This document shows positions 4,971 to 62,613 of a stretch of DNA of 64,000 nt, piece after piece. This DNA comes from Tagaea sp. (lineage in GTDB: Bacteria; Pseudomonadota; Alphaproteobacteria; CACIAM-22H2), in the NCBI GenBank assembly GCA_965279525.1, contig CBDIIB010000004.1, positions 1,056,001 through 1,120,000 of the forward strand, written 5' to 3'. The notes below the pieces were generated by a model. The model saw nothing but the letters and a program-made list of their open reading frames with translations, was not told the origin of the DNA and searched no databases. The translations under genes were made by a program, and so were the position numbers. Within the stretch, counting starts at the first letter, position 1; each line of letters begins with the position of its first letter.

Positions 4971-5045
4971 TTCCGACTCCCCATCCCCTTGGCGACATCC
5001 TAGGGAACGCGGTCCGTCCGGAATACGTGCTATGATCGTATTACT

Positions 5046-5140
5046 TACATATGTATTTATAGTTGTATTTAGTCCTTCACCGGGATATAAGTCCAGCATT
5101 GGCCGAAACCATCCGGCCATGCGCTGTTTGAACCGGTGAA
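5046..5140 (+). promoter_or_regulatory. Leader of dispersed element copy 1: sigma70-like promoter, hairpin and boxA-like site
   Basis: TTGTAT (5063-5068)-N17-TATAAG (5086-5091); hairpin TGGCCG/CGGCCA 5100-5119; GCTGTTTGAA 5123-5132. All conserved in copy 2. Confidence 0.6.
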
Positions 5141-5156
5141 TATGGAACGGCAGCCA

Positions 5157-5403
5157 GCCGCAAGGTTTGGTTGACGGCGTGCGATTTCCGTCAACGTCAA
5201 CTGGCTTTCGTGGAAAATCAAGGGCATGGCCTGTTGACGGTCAACGCCCGTCAACTTCCGTCAACGACCCGCGTCAACTTCCGTCAACACGGCCGCAAGA
5301 ATGACGAGACATGCGCATGTGACGTCGCATGTCGCATCGGTTTCGTGGCGGATCAACGGGTTGGACAGGAGACGGTAACATGACGTCTCCTCGTGTCTCG
5401 TCA
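5157..5403. repeat. Two tandem palindromic units (135-bp period): unit A with GTTGACGG/CCGTCAAC arms, unit B with TGACGAGAC/GTCTCGTCA-type arms
   Basis: Nine GTTGAC/GTCAAC hexamers in 5170-5288. GCCGCAAG at 5157 and 5292; TTTCGTGG-N3-ATCAA at 5206 and 5341. Confidence 0.8.
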
Positions 5404-5507
5404 CCCTCACCCCGCAACGTATACGTTGCGCCTCTCCCGCAGGCGGGAGAGGGGACGCACCGGTCGAGTCCCCTCTCCCCTCCGGGGAGAGGGTTAGGGT
5501 GAGGGGG
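5404..5507. repeat. REP-like palindrome doublet (CCCTCACCC...CCTCTCCC-loop-GGGAGAGGG, two inverted copies)
   Basis: Hairpins at 5431-5452 and 5471-5493, just after the mrcA stop; homologous doublet at 54539-54635. Confidence 0.85.
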
Positions 5508-5513
5508 ACGGTC

Positions 5514-7933
5514 CTAATAAATCCCGTCGCTCGTCTCGCCGCCTTGCGTGGAAATTCCCTGCAGCGGCGACGTGAACTGCCCTGCCCCGTCGAGCACCTG
5601 CTGGTCGGCGCGCACTTCGGTGCCGGGCTTGAAGGCTTCCCAGATCGCGTCGCGTTCGCCGGGGCGTGCGGGGGCCCCGCTCTGCGGGTTGACGCGCACG
5701 AGCCGGATGCCCGGCGGCGTGCGGAACGGCACCACCGGCGTGCCCTGCAGCACTTCGGCCATCACGTCGCGGAAGATGGGCACCGCGACCGAAGAGCCGG
5801 TCTCGTTGGGCCCCAGCGTGCGCGGCGCGTCGAACCCGACCCACACGCCGACCGCAAGGTCGGGCGAGAAGCCCAGGAACCACGCATCGAACGAATCGTT
5901 CGTGGTCCCCGTCTTGCCGCCGAGCGGACGGTTGAGGTCGCGCAGGCGGCGCGCGGTGCCGCGTTCGACCACGCCCTGCAGCATCGACACCATCTGGAAG
6001 GCGCTGAGCGGATCGACCGCCTGCGCGCGCATGTCGGGCAGTTCGGGCGGTGCCGAGTCCGGCAGCCACACGTCGATGCGGCAGGCCTCGCAGGCGCGCG
6101 TGTCGTGGCGGAACACGGTGCGGCCCTCGCGGTCCTGCACGCGGTCGATCAGCGTGGGTTCGATGCGCTTGCCGCCATTGACGAACATCGCGTAGGCCGT
6201 GGTCATGCGCATCAACGTCGTCTCGCCCGCGCCCAGCGCCATCGCAAGGCTGGGTGCCAGCTTGTCGACCACGCCGAGCCGCTCGGCGCTCTCCGCGACC
6301 TTGTCCATGCCGACGGCCTGCGCCAGCCGGATCGTCATCAGGTTGCGCGACTGTTCGATGCCCACGCGCATCGGCGACGGCCCGTAGAAATTCCGCGAAT
6401 AGTTGGCCGGACGCCACGGCGGCAGGCCCGGCCCCTGGTCGACGACGATGGGCGCGTCGAGGATCAGGCTCGCCGGCGAGAAGTTGCTGTCGAGTGCGGG
6501 CAGATAGACGAACGGCTTGAACGACGAGCCGGGCTGGCGCTGGGCCTGCGTGGCGCGGTTGAACTGGGAAAGCTCGTAGCTCCACCCGCCGACGAGGGCG
6601 CGCACGCGCCCGGTGTGCGGGTCCATCGCGACCACGCCGCCGCCCACGTTGGGGATCTGGCGCAGGGCGAAGCGCTTCGCCGCCGCAAGCGGTTCGACCA
6701 GCACGATGTCGCCCACCGCCACGACGTCGGCGGGCACGCGCACGGCGGGGCCCACGCGCTGTTCCTTCTCGGTGCGCCGCGCCCAGCGCATCTCCTCGAC
6801 CGGCAACGCGCCCGTCGTGCCGTCGGCGAACGCGATCTCGGCGGCGTCGTTGGCAAGGGCTCGCACCAGCGCCAATTGCCATTCGGCGGCCGCACCGCCG
6901 GGCCGCGGATATGCCGCAAGCTGGCGGCGCCAGTCGGTAACACTGGCATCGATCCTTGCCGACCGGCCCGCGCCAGCCGTGGCGCCGGTCGTAGGCGAGC
7001 AGGCCCCGGCGCAGGGCCGCCTCGGCGGCCGCCTGGGTCTTGGGGTCCATCGTCGTACGCACGTTGAGCCCGCCGCGGAACAGGTCGCGCTCGCCGAAGC
7101 GCGCCAGCAGTTCGCGGCGCACCTCCTCGGCGAAATAGTCGGCGCGCACGGTGTCTTCGGGGCCGCGCTGGCGCGTGATGATCGGCGTCTGCGCGCGCGT
7201 TCTCGTAGTCGCCCGGCGTGATGTGGCCGTCTTCCAGCATGCGGCCCAGCACCCAGTCGCGCCGCTCGCGCGCGCGCTCCATGTAGCGGCGCGGGTCGTA
7301 GTTGTTGGGCGCTTTGGGGAGCACGGCGAGGAACGCGGCTTCGGCCAGCGACAGCTCGTCGAGCGAACGGTCGAAATAGTTGGTCGCGGCCGAAGCAACG
7401 CCATAGGCGCCGAAGCCCAGATAGATCTCGTTGAGATAGAGCTCGAGGATGCGCCGCTTGGAAAGCGACTCCTCGATGCGCAGCGCGAGGATCGCTTCCT
7501 TGGCCTTGCGCTCGAGCGACACCTCGTTGGTCAGCAGCATGTTCTTGGCGACCTGCTGCGTGATCGTCGATGCGCCCACCGGCCGGCGGGCGCCCAGGTT
7601 CGTGATGTTCTGGAAGGCCGCGCGCGCGATGTCGGGCAGGCTCACGCCGGGATGCGTGAAGAACGTCTTGTCTTCGGCCGCGAGGAACGCGTTGACCACA
7701 CGCCGCGGGATCGCGTCGAACGGCACGAAGGTGCGCCGCTCGATGGCGAACTCGGCAAGGATGCGCCCGTCGGCCGCGTGCACGCGCGTGGTGACCGATG
7801 TCTGGTAGGCGGCAAGCGTCTTGTGGTCGGGCAGGCCGCGGCCGAAATACCAGAAGCCGCCAAGCGTCGCCGCCGTCCCGCCGACGAGGCCGAGAAAAAT
7901 CAGAACGACAAGGGCGATGATCCCACGACGCAT
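5514..7933 (-). CDS. mrcA: Penicillin-binding protein 1A (class A PBP); two frameshifts near 7195 and 6954, probably sequencing errors
   Basis: Transglycosylase motifs AEDKTFFTHPG, GASTITQQVAKN, RKAKE and LYLNEIYLG; transpeptidase motifs SSFK, SRN and KTGT; spread over three consecutive frames; next to amiC. Confidence 0.92.
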
Positions 7934-9386: not shown

Positions 9387-9965
9387 CGACTCGACATATA
9401 TCCCGCGACACGAATCCCCGGCAAGGCCGGCGAGCGGGACCCTTGAAACTAAACGCCGATAACGACGGTGGAAATTACCGATTGTGACCCGGGGAGTCGG
9501 CCTGTATTCTCCCCTCCGTTCGCTGGATGTCGACGCGCCCAAGACCGGAGCGCCGCGTCCGTGCGGGTCACCCATCGCGTGCCGCAACCGCTCCGGACCT
9601 CGGTCCGTGCGGCGGCAAGGCCCGGGGTGAGGCTCGCGGCGAACGCGCCAGGGGCGGCCGATCGACGGCGCACGCCCAAGAATTGGACCCCGCGGAAGGG
9701 GCCGTCTCCCCGCTCCCCTTTTTCAGGGTCGGAGCGATGTCAGGGACGGAAAACTCCGCGACGGTCAAGACCGCGGCGCGGGCCCAAGGAACCCGCGCGC
9801 GACCGCGACGCCAGACGGTTAACCCCCGACGGCACCGTGCGCCCAAGCGATCCGGTCAAGATTTTCATGGCGCCGCGCTCATGCGCGCGAACGACGCCGG
9901 CATTCCGCCGCTCGTCGCGACGCGCATCCGGGCGAACGGCGCCGCATTCGGAGAAGTGTATCGCG

Positions 9966-12836
9966 ATGGCTAAACGTATGTTGATCGACTCGACCCACCC
10001 GGAAGAAACCCGCGTGGTCGTTCTCGACGGGAACAAGCTGGACGAGTTCGATTTCGAAACCGCCAGCAAGAAGCAACTCAAGGGCAACATCTATCTGGCG
10101 CGCGTCACGCGCGTCGAGCCCTCGCTGCAGGCGGCGTTCATCGAATTCGGCGGCAACCGCCACGGGTTCCTCGCCTTCAACGAAATCCACCCGGACTATT
10201 ACCGCATCCCGGTCGCCGACCGGCAGGCGCTGATGGCCGACGACGAGGAAGAAACGGTGCGCTTCGAGCGCCCGCGCCGCCCGCGTCGCGAGGAGCGCGA
10301 TGCCGAAGCGGCGCACGCCGATCCGGTGCACGCCGATCCTGCATCGGCCGATCCGGCATCGGCCGATCCCGCATCGGCCGATCCGCTCCCGACCGTCCCG
10401 TTCGACGATGTCGCCGGTTCCGGCCCGGTCGAACTCGCACCGCCGGCTTCGCAGCCTGCCGAGCAGCTTTCGTTTCCGGTCGCCGACGCGCCGCCCGCCG
10501 CAAGCGAGCCGGCAACGGCCGACGCCGCTCCGCTGGGCTTCGATGCGCCCGCGACGGAAGCGGAACCCGGCGAAGCGGTCACCGGCGAAGTGCTGCCGCC
10601 CGACGGCGTTCCGTCCGACCTGCCGGCCGGCGACGACGCGGCCGAACCGCGCCAGCACCACGTCGAATCGCTCGGCGGCGACACGGTCGACGACGCGCAC
10701 GAGACGCGCCGCCGCGCGCGCCCGCAGCGCCACTACAAGATCCAGGAAGTGCTCAAGCGCCGCCAGGTGCTGCTCGTCCAGGTCGTCAAGGAAGAGCGCG
10801 GCACCAAGGGTGCGGCTCTCACCACGTACCTGTCGCTCGCAGGCCGCTACTGCGTGCTGATGCCCAACACCGACCGGGGCGGCGGGATCTCGCGCCGCAT
10901 CACCTCGCAGCAGGACCGCAAGCGCCTCAAGAACCTGATCGAGGAGCTCGACCTGCCCGACGGCATGGCCGTGATCCTGCGCACCGCCGGCATGGAGCGC
11001 GAGACCGCCGACATCCGGCGCGACTACGAATACCTGATGCGCCTGTGGGAGGAGATCCGCGACCTGACGCTGCGCTCGTCGGCGCCGTCGCTGATCTACG
11101 AGGAAGGAAGCCTCATCAAGCGCGCGATCCGCGACATGTACTCGGCCGATATCGACGAGATCCTCGTCGAGGGGCAGAACGGGTTCGAGTCCTCGCGCCA
11201 CTTCATGGGCATGCTGATGCCCAGCGACATCGGCCGCATCCGGCGCTACGACGACGCGCAGGTGCCGCTGTTCCAGCGCTTCCAGGTCGAGAACGAGCTC
11301 GACGAGATGCACCTGCCGACGGTGCGGCTCAAGTCGGGCGGCTACATCGTCATCAACTCGACCGAGGCGCTCGTCGCCATCGACGTGAACTCCGGCCGCT
11401 CCACGCGCGAGCGCAACATCGACGAGACGGCGTACAAGACGAACCTGGAGGCGGCCGACGAGGTCGCCCGCCAGCTTCGCCTGCGCGATCTCGCGGGCCT
11501 GATCGTCATCGACTTCATCGACATGGACGACCACCGTCACCAGACGAACGTCGAACGTCGCCTGAAGGACGCGATGAAGTCCGACCGCGCGCGCATCCAG
11601 ATCGGCCGCATCTCGGCCTTCGGGTTGCTCGAGCTGTCGCGCCAGCGTCTGCGTCCGTCGATCTCGGAGATCAGCTTCGAGGTCTGCCCGCACTGCAACG
11701 GCACCGGCCGCCTGCGCTCGACCGAGTCCGCGGCACTGCACGTTCTGCGCGGGATCGAGGAGGAAGCGGGCAAGATGCGCGCGGCCGAGATCGCGGTCTA
11801 TGTCGCCACTCCGGTCGCCCTTTATCTCTTCAACAACAAGCGTGCGGCACTGGCGGGCATCGAGAGCCGCTTCGGCCTGCGCGTCAATTTCCATTCGGAC
11901 GACACGCTGATCCCGCCCGCCTTCCGCATCGAACGCGCCAAGACCAAGGCGCCCGACGCGCAGGGTGCGGCACCGATCCGCAGCGTCGAGGACTTCTCGC
12001 CGTCGACAGGCACGTCGACCGACCCCAGCGACGTGCGCGAGCGCGACGATCTGGGCGACGACGACGCCCCGCCCGCCCGCAGCGAAAGCCCGCGCCATTC
12101 GCGTGGCGGTGAACGCGGCGGCGAGCGCGGCGGTGAACGTGGTGGCGAGCGCGGCGGCGAAGGCGGTGGCGAGGAAGGCAGCGGTCGCGGCCGGCGCCGG
12201 CGTCGGCGCGGTCGCGGCGATCGCGGCGATCGCCCCCAGCAGGGTGGCGAGCCGCAGGGCGATGCGGCCGAGACGGCCGTGCAGGCGGCCGAAGGCGTGC
12301 CGGCACAGGCCGACCGCGAAGCCCCGCAGGGTGGTGAGTTCCCGAATGAAGGTGCGCCCGGCGATGCCGGCGGCGAGGACGGCGCACGCCGTCGCCGCCG
12401 TCGCGGACGTCGCGGCGGCCGCCGTCGCGGGCGCCGTCCGGAAGACGGCGAAGTCACGGCCGATGCAGGCGCGCCGGAAGGTGCGGCGAACGGCGAAGCG
12501 GCACCCGTGCCGATGGCGACACCGGCCAATCCCGATCCGGTCTATGACGCACCGGCCTTCCGTCCAGAGCCGCAGCGCGTCCGCGTGGCCGGTCCGGGCG
12601 ACGACCGTTTCCCGCCGCCCGAGCGCGTGGCGGGTCCCGGCGATGCGCATGACTGGCCCTGGAACAAGCAGGCAGGTGCGCCAGCACCCGCTTCGGCAGG
12701 CGAACCGATCCGCGTGAGCGAACCGGTACCGGCACCGATCGTGGCAGCACCGCCCGAAACGGCGGCCCCGCCGCCCGAGGACGACGATCCGAACCGGCCG
12801 AAGAAGCGTGGCTGGTGGAACCGCCTGACCGGCTGA
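9966..12836 (+). CDS. rne: Ribonuclease E
   Basis: MAKRMLIDSTHPEETRVVV, S1 domain GNIYLARVTRVEPSLQAAF, IDVNSG, DFIDM, CPHCNGTG zinc link, Arg-rich C-terminal region ending GWWNRLTG. Confidence 0.96.
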   Translation: MAKRMLIDSTHPEETRVVVLDGNKLDEFDFETASKKQLKGNIYLARVTRVEPSLQAAFIEFGGNRHGFLAFNEIHPDYYRIPVADRQALMADDEEETVRFERPRRPRREERDAEAAHADPVHADPASADPASADPASADPLPTVPFDDVAGSGPVELAPPASQPAEQLSFPVADAPPAASEPATADAAPLGFDAPATEAEPGEAVTGEVLPPDGVPSDLPAGDDAAEPRQHHVESLGGDTVDDAHETRRRARPQRHYKIQEVLKRRQVLLVQVVKEERGTKGAALTTYLSLAGRYCVLMPNTDRGGGISRRITSQQDRKRLKNLIEELDLPDGMAVILRTAGMERETADIRRDYEYLMRLWEEIRDLTLRSSAPSLIYEEGSLIKRAIRDMYSADIDEILVEGQNGFESSRHFMGMLMPSDIGRIRRYDDAQVPLFQRFQVENELDEMHLPTVRLKSGGYIVINSTEALVAIDVNSGRSTRERNIDETAYKTNLEAADEVARQLRLRDLAGLIVIDFIDMDDHRHQTNVERRLKDAMKSDRARIQIGRISAFGLLELSRQRLRPSISEISFEVCPHCNGTGRLRSTESAALHVLRGIEEEAGKMRAAEIAVYVATPVALYLFNNKRAALAGIESRFGLRVNFHSDDTLIPPAFRIERAKTKAPDAQGAAPIRSVEDFSPSTGTSTDPSDVRERDDLGDDDAPPARSESPRHSRGGERGGERGGERGGERGGEGGGEEGSGRGRRRRRRGRGDRGDRPQQGGEPQGDAAETAVQAAEGVPAQADREAPQGGEFPNEGAPGDAGGEDGARRRRRRGRRGGRRRGRRPEDGEVTADAGAPEGAANGEAAPVPMATPANPDPVYDAPAFRPEPQRVRVAGPGDDRFPPPERVAGPGDAHDWPWNKQAGAPAPASAGEPIRVSEPVPAPIVAAPPETAAPPPEDDDPNRPKKRGWWNRLTG

Positions 12837-53348: not shown

Positions 53349-53361
53349 AGGAGTGTTTCCG

Positions 53362-54306
53362 ATGCTGAAGCGTCCGTTCACTGGCGTGATCGCCGCCCCG
53401 TTGCTGCCCATGCACGACGACCAATCGGTCGACTGGACCACGCTCGAGCGCTACATGGACTGGATCGCCGGTCAGAACCCGGCCGCCATCGCGATGAACA
53501 TGGATGCCTCGGAAGTGATCTCGCTGACCGAGGACGAACAGTTCGAGGTCGTGCGCGTGTGCCGGGCCGGCATCGGCGGCCGCGTGCCCTTCCTGTCGGG
53601 TATCGTCGCGGGCTCGACGGCGGCCGCGGCTGCCAAGGCCGTGAAGCTGCGCGATGCCGGCGTGGAAGGCTTCGCGATCTTCCCGCCCTTCCCCACGTTC
53701 AGCGGCGCACCCGTGCCCGAGCAGATGATCGTGCGCTACCACCGCGCGATCGCCGACGCCTCGGGCCTGCCGATCATCTGCTTCCAGTTCCCCAAGAACT
53801 GGGGCCCGGACTACACGCCCGAGATCCTGCGCGCCATCGCCGAGATCCCGCAGCTCGTCGCGATCAAGGAATCCTCGTTCGACGTGACGCAGACACTGTC
53901 CACCATCAGCGGTGCTGCCAATCTGAAGCGGCCCATCGGCGTGCTGACGGGCAGCGACACCTTCATCTTCGAGGCGATGGTGATGGGCTGCGACGGCGCC
54001 CTGATCGGCTTCGGCGGCACGGCCACCGCCGAACTCGTCGCCATGCACGCGGCCGTGAAGCGCGGCGACATCTCGGCCGGCAAGGCGATCTGGGACCGGC
54101 TCGGCCCGCTCGCCCGCTGGTGCTGGCGCCCGCCGATCCGCGACTTCCGCCCGCGCATGAAGGAAGCGCTGAAGCTCCAGGGCATCTTCCCGTCGGCCAT
54201 GTGCCGCGAGCCGCAGCTTGGCGTCGACGATGCCGACCGGCGCGAGATCGCCGCGATCCTGAAGACGGCCGGCATGCTGGGAACGGGCATGCGCAAGGCC
54301 GGATGA
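53362..54306 (+). CDS. DapA/NAL family class I aldolase-fold protein with an atypical active site
   Basis: FTGVIAA, AIKES (Schiff-base Lys), LTGSD and GCDGALIG; RBS AAGGAG. Confidence 0.85.
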   Translation: MLKRPFTGVIAAPLLPMHDDQSVDWTTLERYMDWIAGQNPAAIAMNMDASEVISLTEDEQFEVVRVCRAGIGGRVPFLSGIVAGSTAAAAAKAVKLRDAGVEGFAIFPPFPTFSGAPVPEQMIVRYHRAIADASGLPIICFQFPKNWGPDYTPEILRAIAEIPQLVAIKESSFDVTQTLSTISGAANLKRPIGVLTGSDTFIFEAMVMGCDGALIGFGGTATAELVAMHAAVKRGDISAGKAIWDRLGPLARWCWRPPIRDFRPRMKEALKLQGIFPSAMCREPQLGVDDADRREIAAILKTAGMLGTGMRKAG

Positions 54307-54523
54307 GTTGACGGGTGTTGACGGGGCGTTGACCGTCAACACGCATCCCGTTGGAATTGCTCGATAGCCAGTTGACGGCGACCGGATCTGCTTGACCGTC
54401 AACCAAACTTTGCGCCCGGCCGCTCCGCTTCACGATGTCAAACAGCGCACGGCCGGATGGTCTCGGCCGATGCGAGGACTCTAATCTGGATCAGGACTAA
54501 ATACAACTATAAATACTTATGTA
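54307..54523 (-). repeat. Dispersed element copy 2: promoter, hairpin, boxA-like site and one GTTGAC/GTCAAC unit
   Basis: Reverse complement aligns by eye with 5046-5265; 30 of the first 31 nt are identical; six GTTGAC/GTCAAC hexamers. Confidence 0.85.
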
Positions 54524-54538
54524 GGATCTCGCACAGAT

Positions 54539-54635
54539 ACCCTCACCCCTGCCCTCTCCCGCAAGCGGGAGAGGGGGACGTCAGCATCGGTGTGATCCCC
54601 TCTCCCGCTTTGCGGGAGAGGGTTAGGGTGAGGGT
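54539..54635. repeat. REP-like palindrome doublet
   Basis: ACCCTCACCCCTGCCCTCTCCCGCAAGCGGGAGAGGG plus an inverted partner ending GGGAGAGGGTTAGGGTGAGGGT; homologous to 5404-5507. Confidence 0.85.
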
Positions 54636-54642
54636 GAACGCT

Positions 54643-55062
54643 CTAACGCGGTGCTGCAACCTGCGTCCGGAGCTTCGCAAGAAACGCGCGCTTGTCGCGT
54701 TTCGCCCACGTCGCGTAGCTCCACGCCCCTTGTGCCGCGACGAGCGTGCCGCTGCCGTCGTCGACATAGAGGATCGCGGACAACGTCTTCCCGCTGGCGA
54801 CGATCTCGACCTTCGTGCGCCGATAGCCGTCGCCTTCATAGGCGTCGAGCAGACGCCCGGCGGCGGCGGAAAGACCGCGTGCCAGCACGCCTTCCATCTC
54901 CGCTTTCGGATCGGGGCGCGCGATGGGAAAGGTCACGCCTTTGGCGGCGAAGCGCCGCCAGCCGGGCAGCGTGGCGGGTTCGACCGTTTCGGGCGCAAGC
55001 CGGCCCAGCACGGCCCGGCGCACGTCCGGGTCGATCAGGGTGCCGTAGAAGAAGAAACGCAT
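54643..55062 (-). CDS. Gamma-glutamylcyclotransferase (AIG2-like) family protein
   Basis: FFFYGTL and LDAYEG..Y.R. Confidence 0.85.
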   Translation of the reverse strand: MRFFFYGTLIDPDVRRAVLGRLAPETVEPATLPGWRRFAAKGVTFPIARPDPKAEMEGVLARGLSAAAGRLLDAYEGDGYRRTKVEIVASGKTLSAILYVDDGSGTLVAAQGAWSYATWAKRDKRAFLAKLRTQVAAPR

Positions 55063-61350: not shown

Positions 61351-62613
61351 ATGGCAGATCAAGAACCCACGAATGGCGGGGCCCTGTCGCCCGGCGCCAT
61401 GAAGCTCAAATGGCTGGCCGACCGCCACAGCGCCTTCCTGTTCGGAAGGCCCGGCGGCCAGCGCGCCGATTCGCGCAAGCAGAATTTCCGGGGTGCCGTG
61501 CTCGACGGCGGGAACCTGTCGTCCGCGATCCTGTCGGGCTGCATTTTCGCGGAAGGCCGGCTGCCGGACTGCGACATGTCGATGGCCGACCTGTTCGCCG
61601 CCGACTTCTCGGGCTGCGACCTGTCGCGCACGTCCTTCCGCAAGGCCGACCTTCGCGCGGCGAGCTTCATCCACGCGAAGATGCGCGGCTGCGACCTGTC
61701 GGGTGCCGACCTGCGGCCGGGCCAGATCATCGACTGGGCGAGCCTGAATTCCGAGACCAAGGAAGTGACCGCGAGCTTCGAATCCGCCGATCTCGAGAAC
61801 GCGCGGATGGGGGCTTCGGATCTCTCCTTCGTCAATTTCGAGAATGCCTCGCTGAAGGGCGCACAGCTCGCCGGCGCCACGCTGTTCGCGGCCAACCTGC
61901 GCGGGGCCGATCTGGTCGGCGCCAAGTTCGACGGCGCCAAGCTCAAGGGCGCACAGCTCGCCGGCGCCAAGCTCAACGGGGCCTCGTTCCGCAACGCCGA
62001 CCTTGCGGGCGTCGACCTGCGCGGCGTCGACATGAACAACGTCCAGATGGGCGGTGCCAGGCTCGAAGGCACCATCTATGCGAACCCGCCGCCCGGCGAG
62101 AAGCTGCCCGACGACCTGAAGCCGATCGTCGACCTGCACCGGCAGTGGGCCGACACGGGCGGGCGCGAAGGCGTGCGCGCGGACTTCGCGGGCCGCGACC
62201 TGACCGGGACCGATTTCGGCGGCTGCGATCTTTCCGGCGCGCGCTTCGACGGTGCCGTCCTCAGCCGCGCGCGTTTCGTCGCCGCGTCGCTGCGCCTGGC
62301 GAGCCTGCTGTCGGTCAGCGCCGAGCGCTGCGATTTCGCCGACGCCGACCTGTCGGGCGCCATGATGCTGGGCGCACGTCTCGAAGGGGCGTCCCTCGTC
62401 GGCGTCGTCGCACGTCCGATGGAGATGCGCCGCCACGACGGCTCGCCCGCCGGCAAGCGCACGCCGACGAGCTTTGCCAACGCCTCGCTGGTGGGTGCCG
62501 ACCTGCGTGCGGCCGACCTGCGCGCCGCCAACTTCAGCGGGGCTGACCTGCGCGGCGCCAACCTTGCCGGCGCCTTCCTTGCCAATGCCGACCTGACCGG
62601 GACGCGGCGCTAG
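61351..62613 (+). CDS. Pentapeptide repeat protein
   Basis: Extensive A(D/N)L-type repeats, with internal HSAFLFGRPGGQRA and HRQWADTGGREGVRA caps. Confidence 0.9.
   Translation: MADQEPTNGGALSPGAMKLKWLADRHSAFLFGRPGGQRADSRKQNFRGAVLDGGNLSSAILSGCIFAEGRLPDCDMSMADLFAADFSGCDLSRTSFRKADLRAASFIHAKMRGCDLSGADLRPGQIIDWASLNSETKEVTASFESADLENARMGASDLSFVNFENASLKGAQLAGATLFAANLRGADLVGAKFDGAKLKGAQLAGAKLNGASFRNADLAGVDLRGVDMNNVQMGGARLEGTIYANPPPGEKLPDDLKPIVDLHRQWADTGGREGVRADFAGRDLTGTDFGGCDLSGARFDGAVLSRARFVAASLRLASLLSVSAERCDFADADLSGAMMLGARLEGASLVGVVARPMEMRRHDGSPAGKRTPTSFANASLVGADLRAADLRAANFSGADLRGANLAGAFLANADLTGTRR

Follow-up and report, generated by a model that had tools for sequence, protein, structure and literature searches.

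A lineage-restricted family of boxA-led, gene-free modular units in a Tagaea genome

Two related non-coding elements, copy A (5044-5403, plus strand) and copy B (54307-54524, minus strand), lie 49 kb apart in a 64,000-nucleotide (nt) stretch of a Tagaea sp. genome (GenBank assembly GCA_965279525.1, contig CBDIIB010000004.1, positions 1,056,001 to 1,120,000). This whole stretch is called the window below, and coordinates refer to it unless a contig is named. Copy A faces a convergent gene for a penicillin-binding protein (transpeptidase; 5514-6875, minus strand; Pfam PF00905 and PF17092), and copy B faces a convergent gene for a DHDPS-family protein (53353-54306, plus strand; Pfam PF00701), its last repeat word lying 1 nt from the stop codon. 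A first-pass annotation of the window had likewise described both copies as pointing into the 3' end of a convergent gene, and had recorded the element as present twice. The homology between the two copies is real, but they belong to a lineage-restricted family of boxA-led, gene-free modular units that is real and larger than first noted, with 44 modules in 38 loci of this genome.

Positions 5044-5288 (plus strand) and 54524-54307 (minus strand) are homologous, with a mean column identity of 73% in a MAFFT alignment. We used blastn to align 5040-5300 against the window's genome; this analysis returned 54307-54523 (minus strand) at 77% identity (E 7.9e-37), in agreement with the earlier report that 5046-5265 is homologous to the reverse complement of that interval, and a repeat search of the window paired the arms 5046-5140 and 54429-54523. 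Within the common part, the two copies are separated by alignment gaps of 4, 1, 1, and 1 nt, which exclude a common reading frame; the conservation is therefore non-coding, as had been proposed.

The landmarks follow the same order in copies A and B. At the left edge of the element is an AT-rich block (5044-5076, plus strand, in copy A; 54494-54524, minus strand, in copy B), for which the earlier count of 30 identical nt out of 31 was confirmed by reading both copies. In copy A, this block carries the direct repeat TGTATTTA at 5053-5060 and 5065-5072, and the homology to an empty site in genome G016 ends right before it. A candidate promoter (TTGTAT-N17-TATAAG; 5063-5091, plus strand) is suggested by the sequence of copy A; it agrees with the relatives better than the first-pass -35/-10 pair does, and one relative has TTGCAT-N17-TATAAT with the same geometry. 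Next is a small hairpin, GGCCG-N8-CGGCC (5101-5118, plus strand; 54451-54468, minus strand), which was found in all five AT-block loci of the genome and which lies directly 5' of boxA, in the place of boxB in ribosomal RNA (rRNA) leaders. The boxA of copy A (GCGCTGTTTGAA) is followed by 3 nt and GTGAATATG (5121-5144, plus strand), and that of copy B (GCGCTGTTTGAC) by 3 nt and GTGAAG (54428-54448, minus strand). Both copies then share GCGCTGTTTGA, the arms GTTGACGG...CCGTCAAC, an ATCAA/TCCAA core, the palindrome GTTGACGGTCAAC, and more GTCAAC words, so the order of hairpin, arms, core, and repeat words in the first-pass annotation was reproduced.

Copy A consists of two modules. Module 1 (5158-5288, plus strand; word GTCAAC) corresponds to an nhmmer match at C4:1061193-1061263 and a covariance model match of 67.8 bits. 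It starts with CCGCAAGG and has a 5' inverted repeat at 5170-5195, an extra word at 5196-5201, the core ATCAAGGGCATGG at 5217-5229, GTTGAC-G-GTCAAC at 5233-5245, and more words at 5250, 5260, 5273, and 5283. Module 2 (5293-5403, plus strand; word GTCTCC; nhmmer match and covariance model match of 64.8 bits) starts with CCGCAAGAATGACGAGAC and contains the core ATCAACGGGTTGG, GGAGAC-N11-GTCTCC at 5368-5390, and a closing GTCTCGTCA at 5395-5403. Copy B has a single module (54307-54414, minus strand; word GTCAAC; nhmmer match C4:1110309-1110380). The stretch common to both copies is thus limited to 5044-5288, and 5293-5403 is a module with another word type that is absent from copy B.

The window's genome (4.35 Mb, five contigs, 97% complete) contains many further members. 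Whereas blastn with copy A gave 16 matches, three rounds of nhmmer with a module profile gave 45, one of which was dropped as a reverse-strand duplicate. The resulting 38 loci include 36 beyond copies A and B, spread over four contigs; the proposal of a dispersed non-coding family, and the further copies that it predicted, were therefore borne out on a far larger scale. A unit contains one to three modules of ~110-135 nt, each built from a hexamer word, the reverse complement of that word, and an (A/T)TCAAnGG core. The 5' part of a module often reads CCGCAA(A/G)..TT, followed by the reverse-complement word, ~10 nt, the word once or twice, and ~15 nt; the 3' part starts with (A/T)TCAAnGG..T, continues with the reverse-complement word, a single base, and the word, and then repeats the word every 10 nt. 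The words in this genome are GTAACC (the commonest), GTCAAC, GTCTCC, GTCGCC, GTCACC, and GTTGCA, and the palindrome GTTGACGGTCAAC occurs 12 times. In ~14 of 85 GTCAAC modules in a printed list (counted by eye), the CCGCAAG...TTGACGG start reappears inverted at the end; the rest abut the next module or gene. The units are not coding, as the bases 3' of GTGAATATG are unconserved, and a small open reading frame (ORF) from the ATG of GTGAATATG was rejected on the same ground and because one copy hits a stop codon after three codons.

The boxA-like site of the first-pass annotation matches the boxA of the genome's own rRNA operon. The word G[CT]GCT[GC]TTTGA[AC] occurs 29 times in the genome: three times in the rRNA operon (the 16S leader and two spacer copies), once in a coding frame, and 25 times in intergenic sequence. 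The 16S leader reads GCGCTCTTTGAAAAGTGAATACGG and the 16S-23S spacer reads GTGCTGTTTGACATGGTGAAGAGG; the boxA words of copies A and B match GCGCTCTTTGAA in the leader and GTGCTGTTTGAC in the spacer, and the GTGAAT box after boxA is common to the window copies, the leader, and the spacer. The 25 intergenic words are usually followed by an (A)AGTGAATA(T)G box, which is also present in the 16S leader, and then by modules. Of the 38 loci, 26 start with a boxA word that matches the rRNA boxA, together with the GTGAAT box.

When one extra word variant was included in the count (n = 31 boxA words), 26 words had a module within 400 nt downstream; the five without one are the sites in the rRNA operon (three), the site in a coding frame, and a divergent locus. 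Modules behind boxA were on the boxA strand in 31 of 31 cases and on the opposite strand in none. A perfect TTGACA is present at 8 of the 31 boxA words, with the -10 hexamer ending 14-17 nt 5' of boxA, and the mean best promoter score was 8.1 of 12 at boxA words, compared with 6.2 for random windows of the genome (n = 2000). The promoter region of the rRNA operon itself is unlike the promoters of the boxA units, which suggests that the leader was copied and not the whole control region. NusB (PF01029) and NusG (PF02357) are encoded in this genome, with matches above the cut-off. At G000:C5:1675631, a boxA with a TTGACT promoter precedes a divergent stretch that contains GTCAAC/GTTGAC words and has no module match; this locus is possibly a decayed or distinct member of the family. 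A NusG-domain paralogue of ~168 amino acids (aa) (C5:868441-868944) was found in 18 of the 21 genus genomes, without correlation to the repeat family; it was rejected as a dedicated partner, since it also occurs in module-free genus genomes and was not found in three module-bearing ones.

The family is restricted to part of the genus. Exact-word patterns for GTCAAC and GTAACC matched 8 and 3, respectively, of 20 other genus genomes and none of 20 genomes of other genera. Searching one genome per species (185,579 species), the GTCAAC pattern identified 78 loci, nearly all in assemblies titled Tagaea sp., Rhodospirillales bacterium, or uncultured Azospirillum sp.; the remaining loci were single matches in Streptomyces and a few others. 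In other species, the same scaffold carries the words GTCGCG, GTTGCC, and GGCGAC. Among the 20 other genus genomes, 14 have multiple copies (6-25) of the boxA+GTGAA word, and these 14 also contain a word-independent core pattern, 4-19 times each; in 29 genomes of the order's other genera, the core pattern occurs at most once per genome, a level similar to that of a control pattern. In four of five module-free genus genomes tested, boxA+GTGAA is present once, at the rRNA leader (GTTGTTTGACAAGTGAA), and the fifth had no match. Multiplication of the boxA leader and possession of modules therefore go together. A module covariance model searched against 150 genomes from 150 other families of the class returned nothing at E ≤ 0.001, and blastn of 5040-5405 against plasmid and phage collections gave no match.

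To place the family in other genomes by synteny, we examined 126 loci, of which 109 carried a module and 98 of these had a flank that could be placed here. A module was present at the orthologous place in the window's genome for 69 of the 98 loci, and the place was unoccupied for 29. Five species have a unit at the copy A locus, flanked by the same genes, and in related species both window loci hold a unit at the corresponding position. Empty-site alleles had been suggested as something to look for, and one clean example was found: in G016 the flanking genes are ~108 nt apart, and ~50 nt with a simple hairpin replaces the whole unit. No target duplication was seen at this site, and the promoter block is missing there too. 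At the copy A locus, three genomes have GGAGAC/GTCTCC in module 2, whereas two have the compensated variant GGTGAC/GTCACC. Synteny, the empty site, and the compensated word change together point to mostly vertical descent with block-wise gain and loss: most units are inherited, gain and loss involve whole blocks with their promoter, and words change in place. The earlier suggestion of a non-autonomous mobile unit is mostly contradicted by the strand polarity, the shared positions, and the lack of a RAYT gene; gain and loss do occur, given the empty site and the unoccupied places.

Gene context was taken from ORFs called by a crude rule based on GC content at third codon positions (GC3). A convergent gene is faced by 20 of the 26 boxA loci, and in 15 of those the module match lies within 25 nt of the gene end. 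The last hairpin of the GTAACC class is preceded by AAA(T/C)AGG, followed by CCT(A/G)TTnTTT, and placed directly against the convergent stop codon; by this arrangement it looks like a bidirectional terminator. The classes found in the window, GTCAAC and GTCTCC, lack a T tract behind the last hairpin, and a strict terminator scan found none in copy A or copy B. The window's 48 called ORFs encode housekeeping functions (RNase E, ribonucleotide reductase, ClpA/ClpS, MipZ, biotin carboxylase, and others), and none has a transposase, integrase, or cas domain, as the first-pass annotation had indicated. Two tandem repeats lie within genes: four 15-nt repeats (CGGCCGATCC...) at 10315-10386, within an RNase E/G-family ORF (9468-12836), and two 90-nt repeats at 61819-61998, within a pentapeptide-repeat protein gene (61351-62613).

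Both copies had been described as abutting REP-like doublets. The doublets are indeed adjacent, but one (5404-5512; GGGAGAGGG / GGGTGAGGG family) is 3' of copy A and the other (54541-54648; family D19) is 5' of copy B, and they are separate elements, unrelated to the units. They are built of CCCTCTCCC-GC..GC-GGGAGAGGG and GGGTGAGGG and have many near-identical copies in this genome and its relatives. The doublet at 5404-5512 is missing in relatives: a related strain's contig joins 5399 to 5518, and that of another relative joins 5399 to 5516, which identifies the doublet as a separate insertion. A second repeat family, GTCGTGGATGCCCGG...CCGGGCATGACGG, is inserted in module 1 of the copy A orthologue of genome G012 (L206); this repeat also lies beside several units of the window's genome, e.g., at G000:C4 ~422250 and C2 ~39470.

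The AT-rich block is also found before protein genes. At locus L232 (G000:C2:37730-40894; minus strand 3022-1791, ~1680-1505), the same block with its TGTATTTA repeat stands before a two-gene operon encoding a DUF6973 protein and a 160-aa protein without a Pfam match, the latter gene being first. Downstream of this operon, a GTCAAC module and a GTCTC/GTCGC module, with no boxA, abut a convergent gene of the GGDEF-EAL type. Such a block may represent a regulated promoter or operator that the units and this operon share. The operon (contig C2) was also considered as the source of a partner protein, and its two proteins gave no lead.

No described Rfam family matches the units. Rfam covariance models gave no matches at the gathering score in the window; at E ≤ 1 across 16 loci, they gave five chance-level matches to unrelated families, well below gathering scores, the best of which fell on a REP-like doublet in L002. 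Literature listings and the opening lines of abstracts on boxA and on the genus Tagaea describe no such family. The nearest known system is the antiterminator of the rRNA leader and spacer (boxB-boxA-boxC with the Nus complex), with which the units share the boxA word, the GTGAAT box, a preceding small hairpin, and an untranslated stretch; however, they head 100-350 nt of palindromic modules and not rRNA, their promoters differ, and there are ~25 extra boxA copies per genome against one rRNA operon leader. Upstream of CRISPR arrays, boxA shields a long untranslated, repeat-bearing transcript from Rho. The units differ from such arrays in having words at a 10-nt period without spacers and no cas domain among the window's ORFs. 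In Baniulyte et al. (2017; PMC5725501), boxA is reported to act outside rRNA, in the suhB leader and other mRNAs, and to be a known means for untranslated transcription to resist Rho; the authors state that their survey did not consider non-coding RNAs. Like the boxA of suhB, other mRNAs, and CRISPR arrays, the boxA of the units is a non-rRNA boxA, but it belongs to a multi-copy family.

Intergenic palindromic repeat families such as REP/BIME (with RAYT), ERIC, and the Correia elements of Neisseria offer a second comparison. The units resemble them in having ~110-135 bp modules with inverted words (some apparently with terminal inverted repeats), siting at convergent genes, mosaic combination, and a central ATCAA...TT that resembles a site for integration host factor (IHF). 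They differ in a polarity fixed by boxA, in mostly syntenic loci, in words that change between species at one locus, and in the lack of a RAYT gene: PF01797 had no matches in the 97%-complete genome, whereas a control was positive in 6 of 14 reference genomes. The IHF consensus is WATCAANNNNTTR. When an IHF site at the core was considered, only 47 of 174 modules matched ATCAANNNNTTR, compared with 2 for the reverse strand, and 22 of 174 matched with the leading W. Insertion in either orientation at variable sites, as in miniature inverted-repeat transposable elements or Correia elements, was not observed: polarity was 31 to 0, and 69 of 98 loci were shared by position. Compared with bidirectional intrinsic terminators, the last hairpin of the GTAACC class is alike in its A and T tracts and in abutting a convergent stop codon; however, the family's loop is 11 nt long and holds a further word, and the window classes lack the T tract.

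This analysis shows the anatomy of the units, the identity of their boxA, their fixed polarity, a covarying inverted repeat, a restricted distribution, and mostly vertical descent. We put at about 0.5 the probability that the family to which copies A and B belong consists of Nus-antiterminated small non-coding RNA genes. Each unit would then begin with a promoter, which in the window is the AT-rich block containing the direct repeat TGTATTTA and elsewhere may be of the TTGACA type. The promoter would be followed by a short hairpin, by a copy of the cell's rRNA antitermination signal (boxA and the GTGAAT box), and by one to three modules. Polymerase that passed boxA would be loaded with NusB/NusE (S10), NusA, and NusG, as on rRNA operons, and would carry the untranslated transcript through without Rho-dependent termination, and the word pairs would fold into hairpins. 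The last of these hairpins in the GTAACC class, flanked by an A tract before and a T tract after, would probably end the RNA and also serve as a terminator for the convergent gene; in the GTCAAC and GTCTCC classes, the lack of a T tract would let the Rho-resistant polymerase continue into the convergent gene, antisense from its 3' end.

This reading is favored by the identity of boxA and its coupling to modules, the promoter scores at boxA words, the presence of NusB and NusG, the co-occurrence of multi-copy boxA and modules, the shared positions of most loci, the convergent genes faced by most boxA loci, and the broken reading frames. In addition, the 31-to-0 polarity behind a transcription signal leans toward RNA, and the 3' inverted repeat of the modules covaries. 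We ran RNAalifold on 42 of the 44 modules, omitting two with long inserts. Across the nine pairs of the 3' inverted repeat, 84.4% of cells were paired, compared with 69.0% in shuffles and 25-53% in slid controls, and seven of the nine pairs showed changes on both sides. Its covariation was 0.371 compared with 0.132, with 0 of 500 shuffles as high, although the relatedness of the paralogues makes this shuffle count overstate the case. Two pairings proposed for the core were set aside: a helix of pre-core bases with the core GGGAT, seen by eye in about half of the GTAACC modules, was not picked by RNAalifold, and an 'anti-boxA' role (TTCAAAG complementary to CTTTGAA) was dropped because the position after TCAA varies freely.

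Several results weigh against the RNA gene family. RNAalifold found a single helix common to all modules, formed by the reverse-complement word with the second word after it, and compensatory change was found for that one helix only. The palindrome of adjacent words, whose loop is too short for RNA folding, was 87.3% paired with a covariation of 0.276 and was thus kept about as well as the foldable pairing. Sense fold energy was lower than antisense in 18 of the 44 modules and higher in 26; G-U pairs numbered 179 of 1665 on the sense strand and 175 of 1668 on the antisense strand; and the covarying helix had 14 G-U cells and 11 A-C cells. Across the 44 modules and in the covarying helix, there was no sense/antisense asymmetry, and tolerance of G-U was not confined to the sense strand. 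The inverted repeat is under selection, but the G-U and fold counts do not distinguish RNA from DNA as its active form. The copies within one genome have identical words, other species have different ones, and the words are arrayed in tandem every 10 nt; exact words at this period with species-wide changes lean toward protein recognition. Modules without boxA are carried by 12 of the 38 loci. The -35/-10 pair first proposed for copy A (TTACAT 5045-5050, N17, TTTAGT 5068-5073) is weak, and a strict sigma-70 scan found no promoter in copy A or copy B. Two metatranscriptome runs contain contigs of relatives that cover 5044-5207 and 5273-5378 at low depth. One contig spans the presumed promoter block, with DNA carry-over possible; this coverage therefore gives no verdict on transcription.

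The leading alternative is that the modules act as DNA, which we regard as possible and clearly less probable than an RNA family. The modules would then resemble REP/BIME, ERIC, or Correia elements as palindromic repeats between genes, with words that serve as binding sites for a sequence-specific protein and a possible bend at the ATCAA core; they would function between convergent genes as terminators, insulators, or nucleoid sites, and the boxA promoter part would be accessory or co-opted. Exact, palindromic words in 10-nt tandem, uniform within a genome and different between species, would fit this alternative, as would the lack of a sense-strand G-U excess, the retention of the adjacent palindrome as well as the foldable pairing, the 12 loci without boxA, the position of modules at the ends of convergent genes, the inverted CCGCAAG...TTGACGG ends of ~14 of 85 GTCAAC modules (by eye), and the variable presence that includes one empty site. 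However, a palindromic DNA site would not require a polarity fixed to boxA, and multi-copy boxA leaders and modules are found in exactly the same genomes. The genome has no RAYT gene and the window no transposase, the IHF core ATCAANNNNTTR is in 47 of 174 modules only, and most loci are syntenic across species. The protein-binding decoy suggested in the first-pass annotation is a possible role.

It is unlikely that the units are mainly cis regulators, in which promoter and boxA would drive a Rho-resistant polymerase head-on into the 3' end of the neighboring gene and act by transcriptional interference or a long antisense RNA, with the modules merely tuning pausing or termination. This would agree with the convergent gene faced by 20 of 26 boxA loci, often within 25 nt of its end, with the missing T tract of the window classes, with copy B ending 1 nt from a stop codon, and with boxA making untranslated transcription Rho-resistant (PMC5725501). 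However, the neighboring genes share no common theme (in the window, a penicillin-binding protein and a DHDPS-family enzyme), the terminator-like hairpin and T tract of the commonest class would halt an antisense run, and the conserved core and words would be unexplained. That the inverted copies, 49 kb apart with their AT-rich blocks facing outwards, are the ends of a transposon or island, or that they are decayed remnants of a protein gene, is hardly credible, as the interval is housekeeping with no transposase or integrase among the 48 ORFs called in the window, 36 more loci are spread over four contigs, both loci are occupied in related species, and indels break every frame.

Known cases of boxA-dependent antitermination are rRNA, lambdoid phages, a small number of mRNAs, and CRISPR arrays. 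Here, one genome carries ~25 extra copies of the rRNA boxA leader before gene-free palindromic modules of fixed polarity, whereas sister species without modules have the word once. If their action is at the DNA level, the units would form a dispersed repeat family with its own antiterminated promoter. If transcribed, they would constitute a multi-copy family of Nus-dependent small RNAs, of which none was found in Rfam or the literature searched, and a natural system for the role of antitermination on short untranslated RNAs and for antisense drive into neighboring genes. A bolder proposal, which we consider doubtful, is that the antitermination leader of the rRNA operon was duplicated ~25 times in a young clade within a single alphaproteobacterial genus, with a modular palindromic RNA joined to every copy. 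The products would be mimics of the rRNA operon that draw on or buffer the Nus machinery and, at many loci, send Rho-proof polymerase antisense into the ends of convergent genes. If true, this would be a genome-wide regulatory layer tied to the apparatus of ribosome synthesis.

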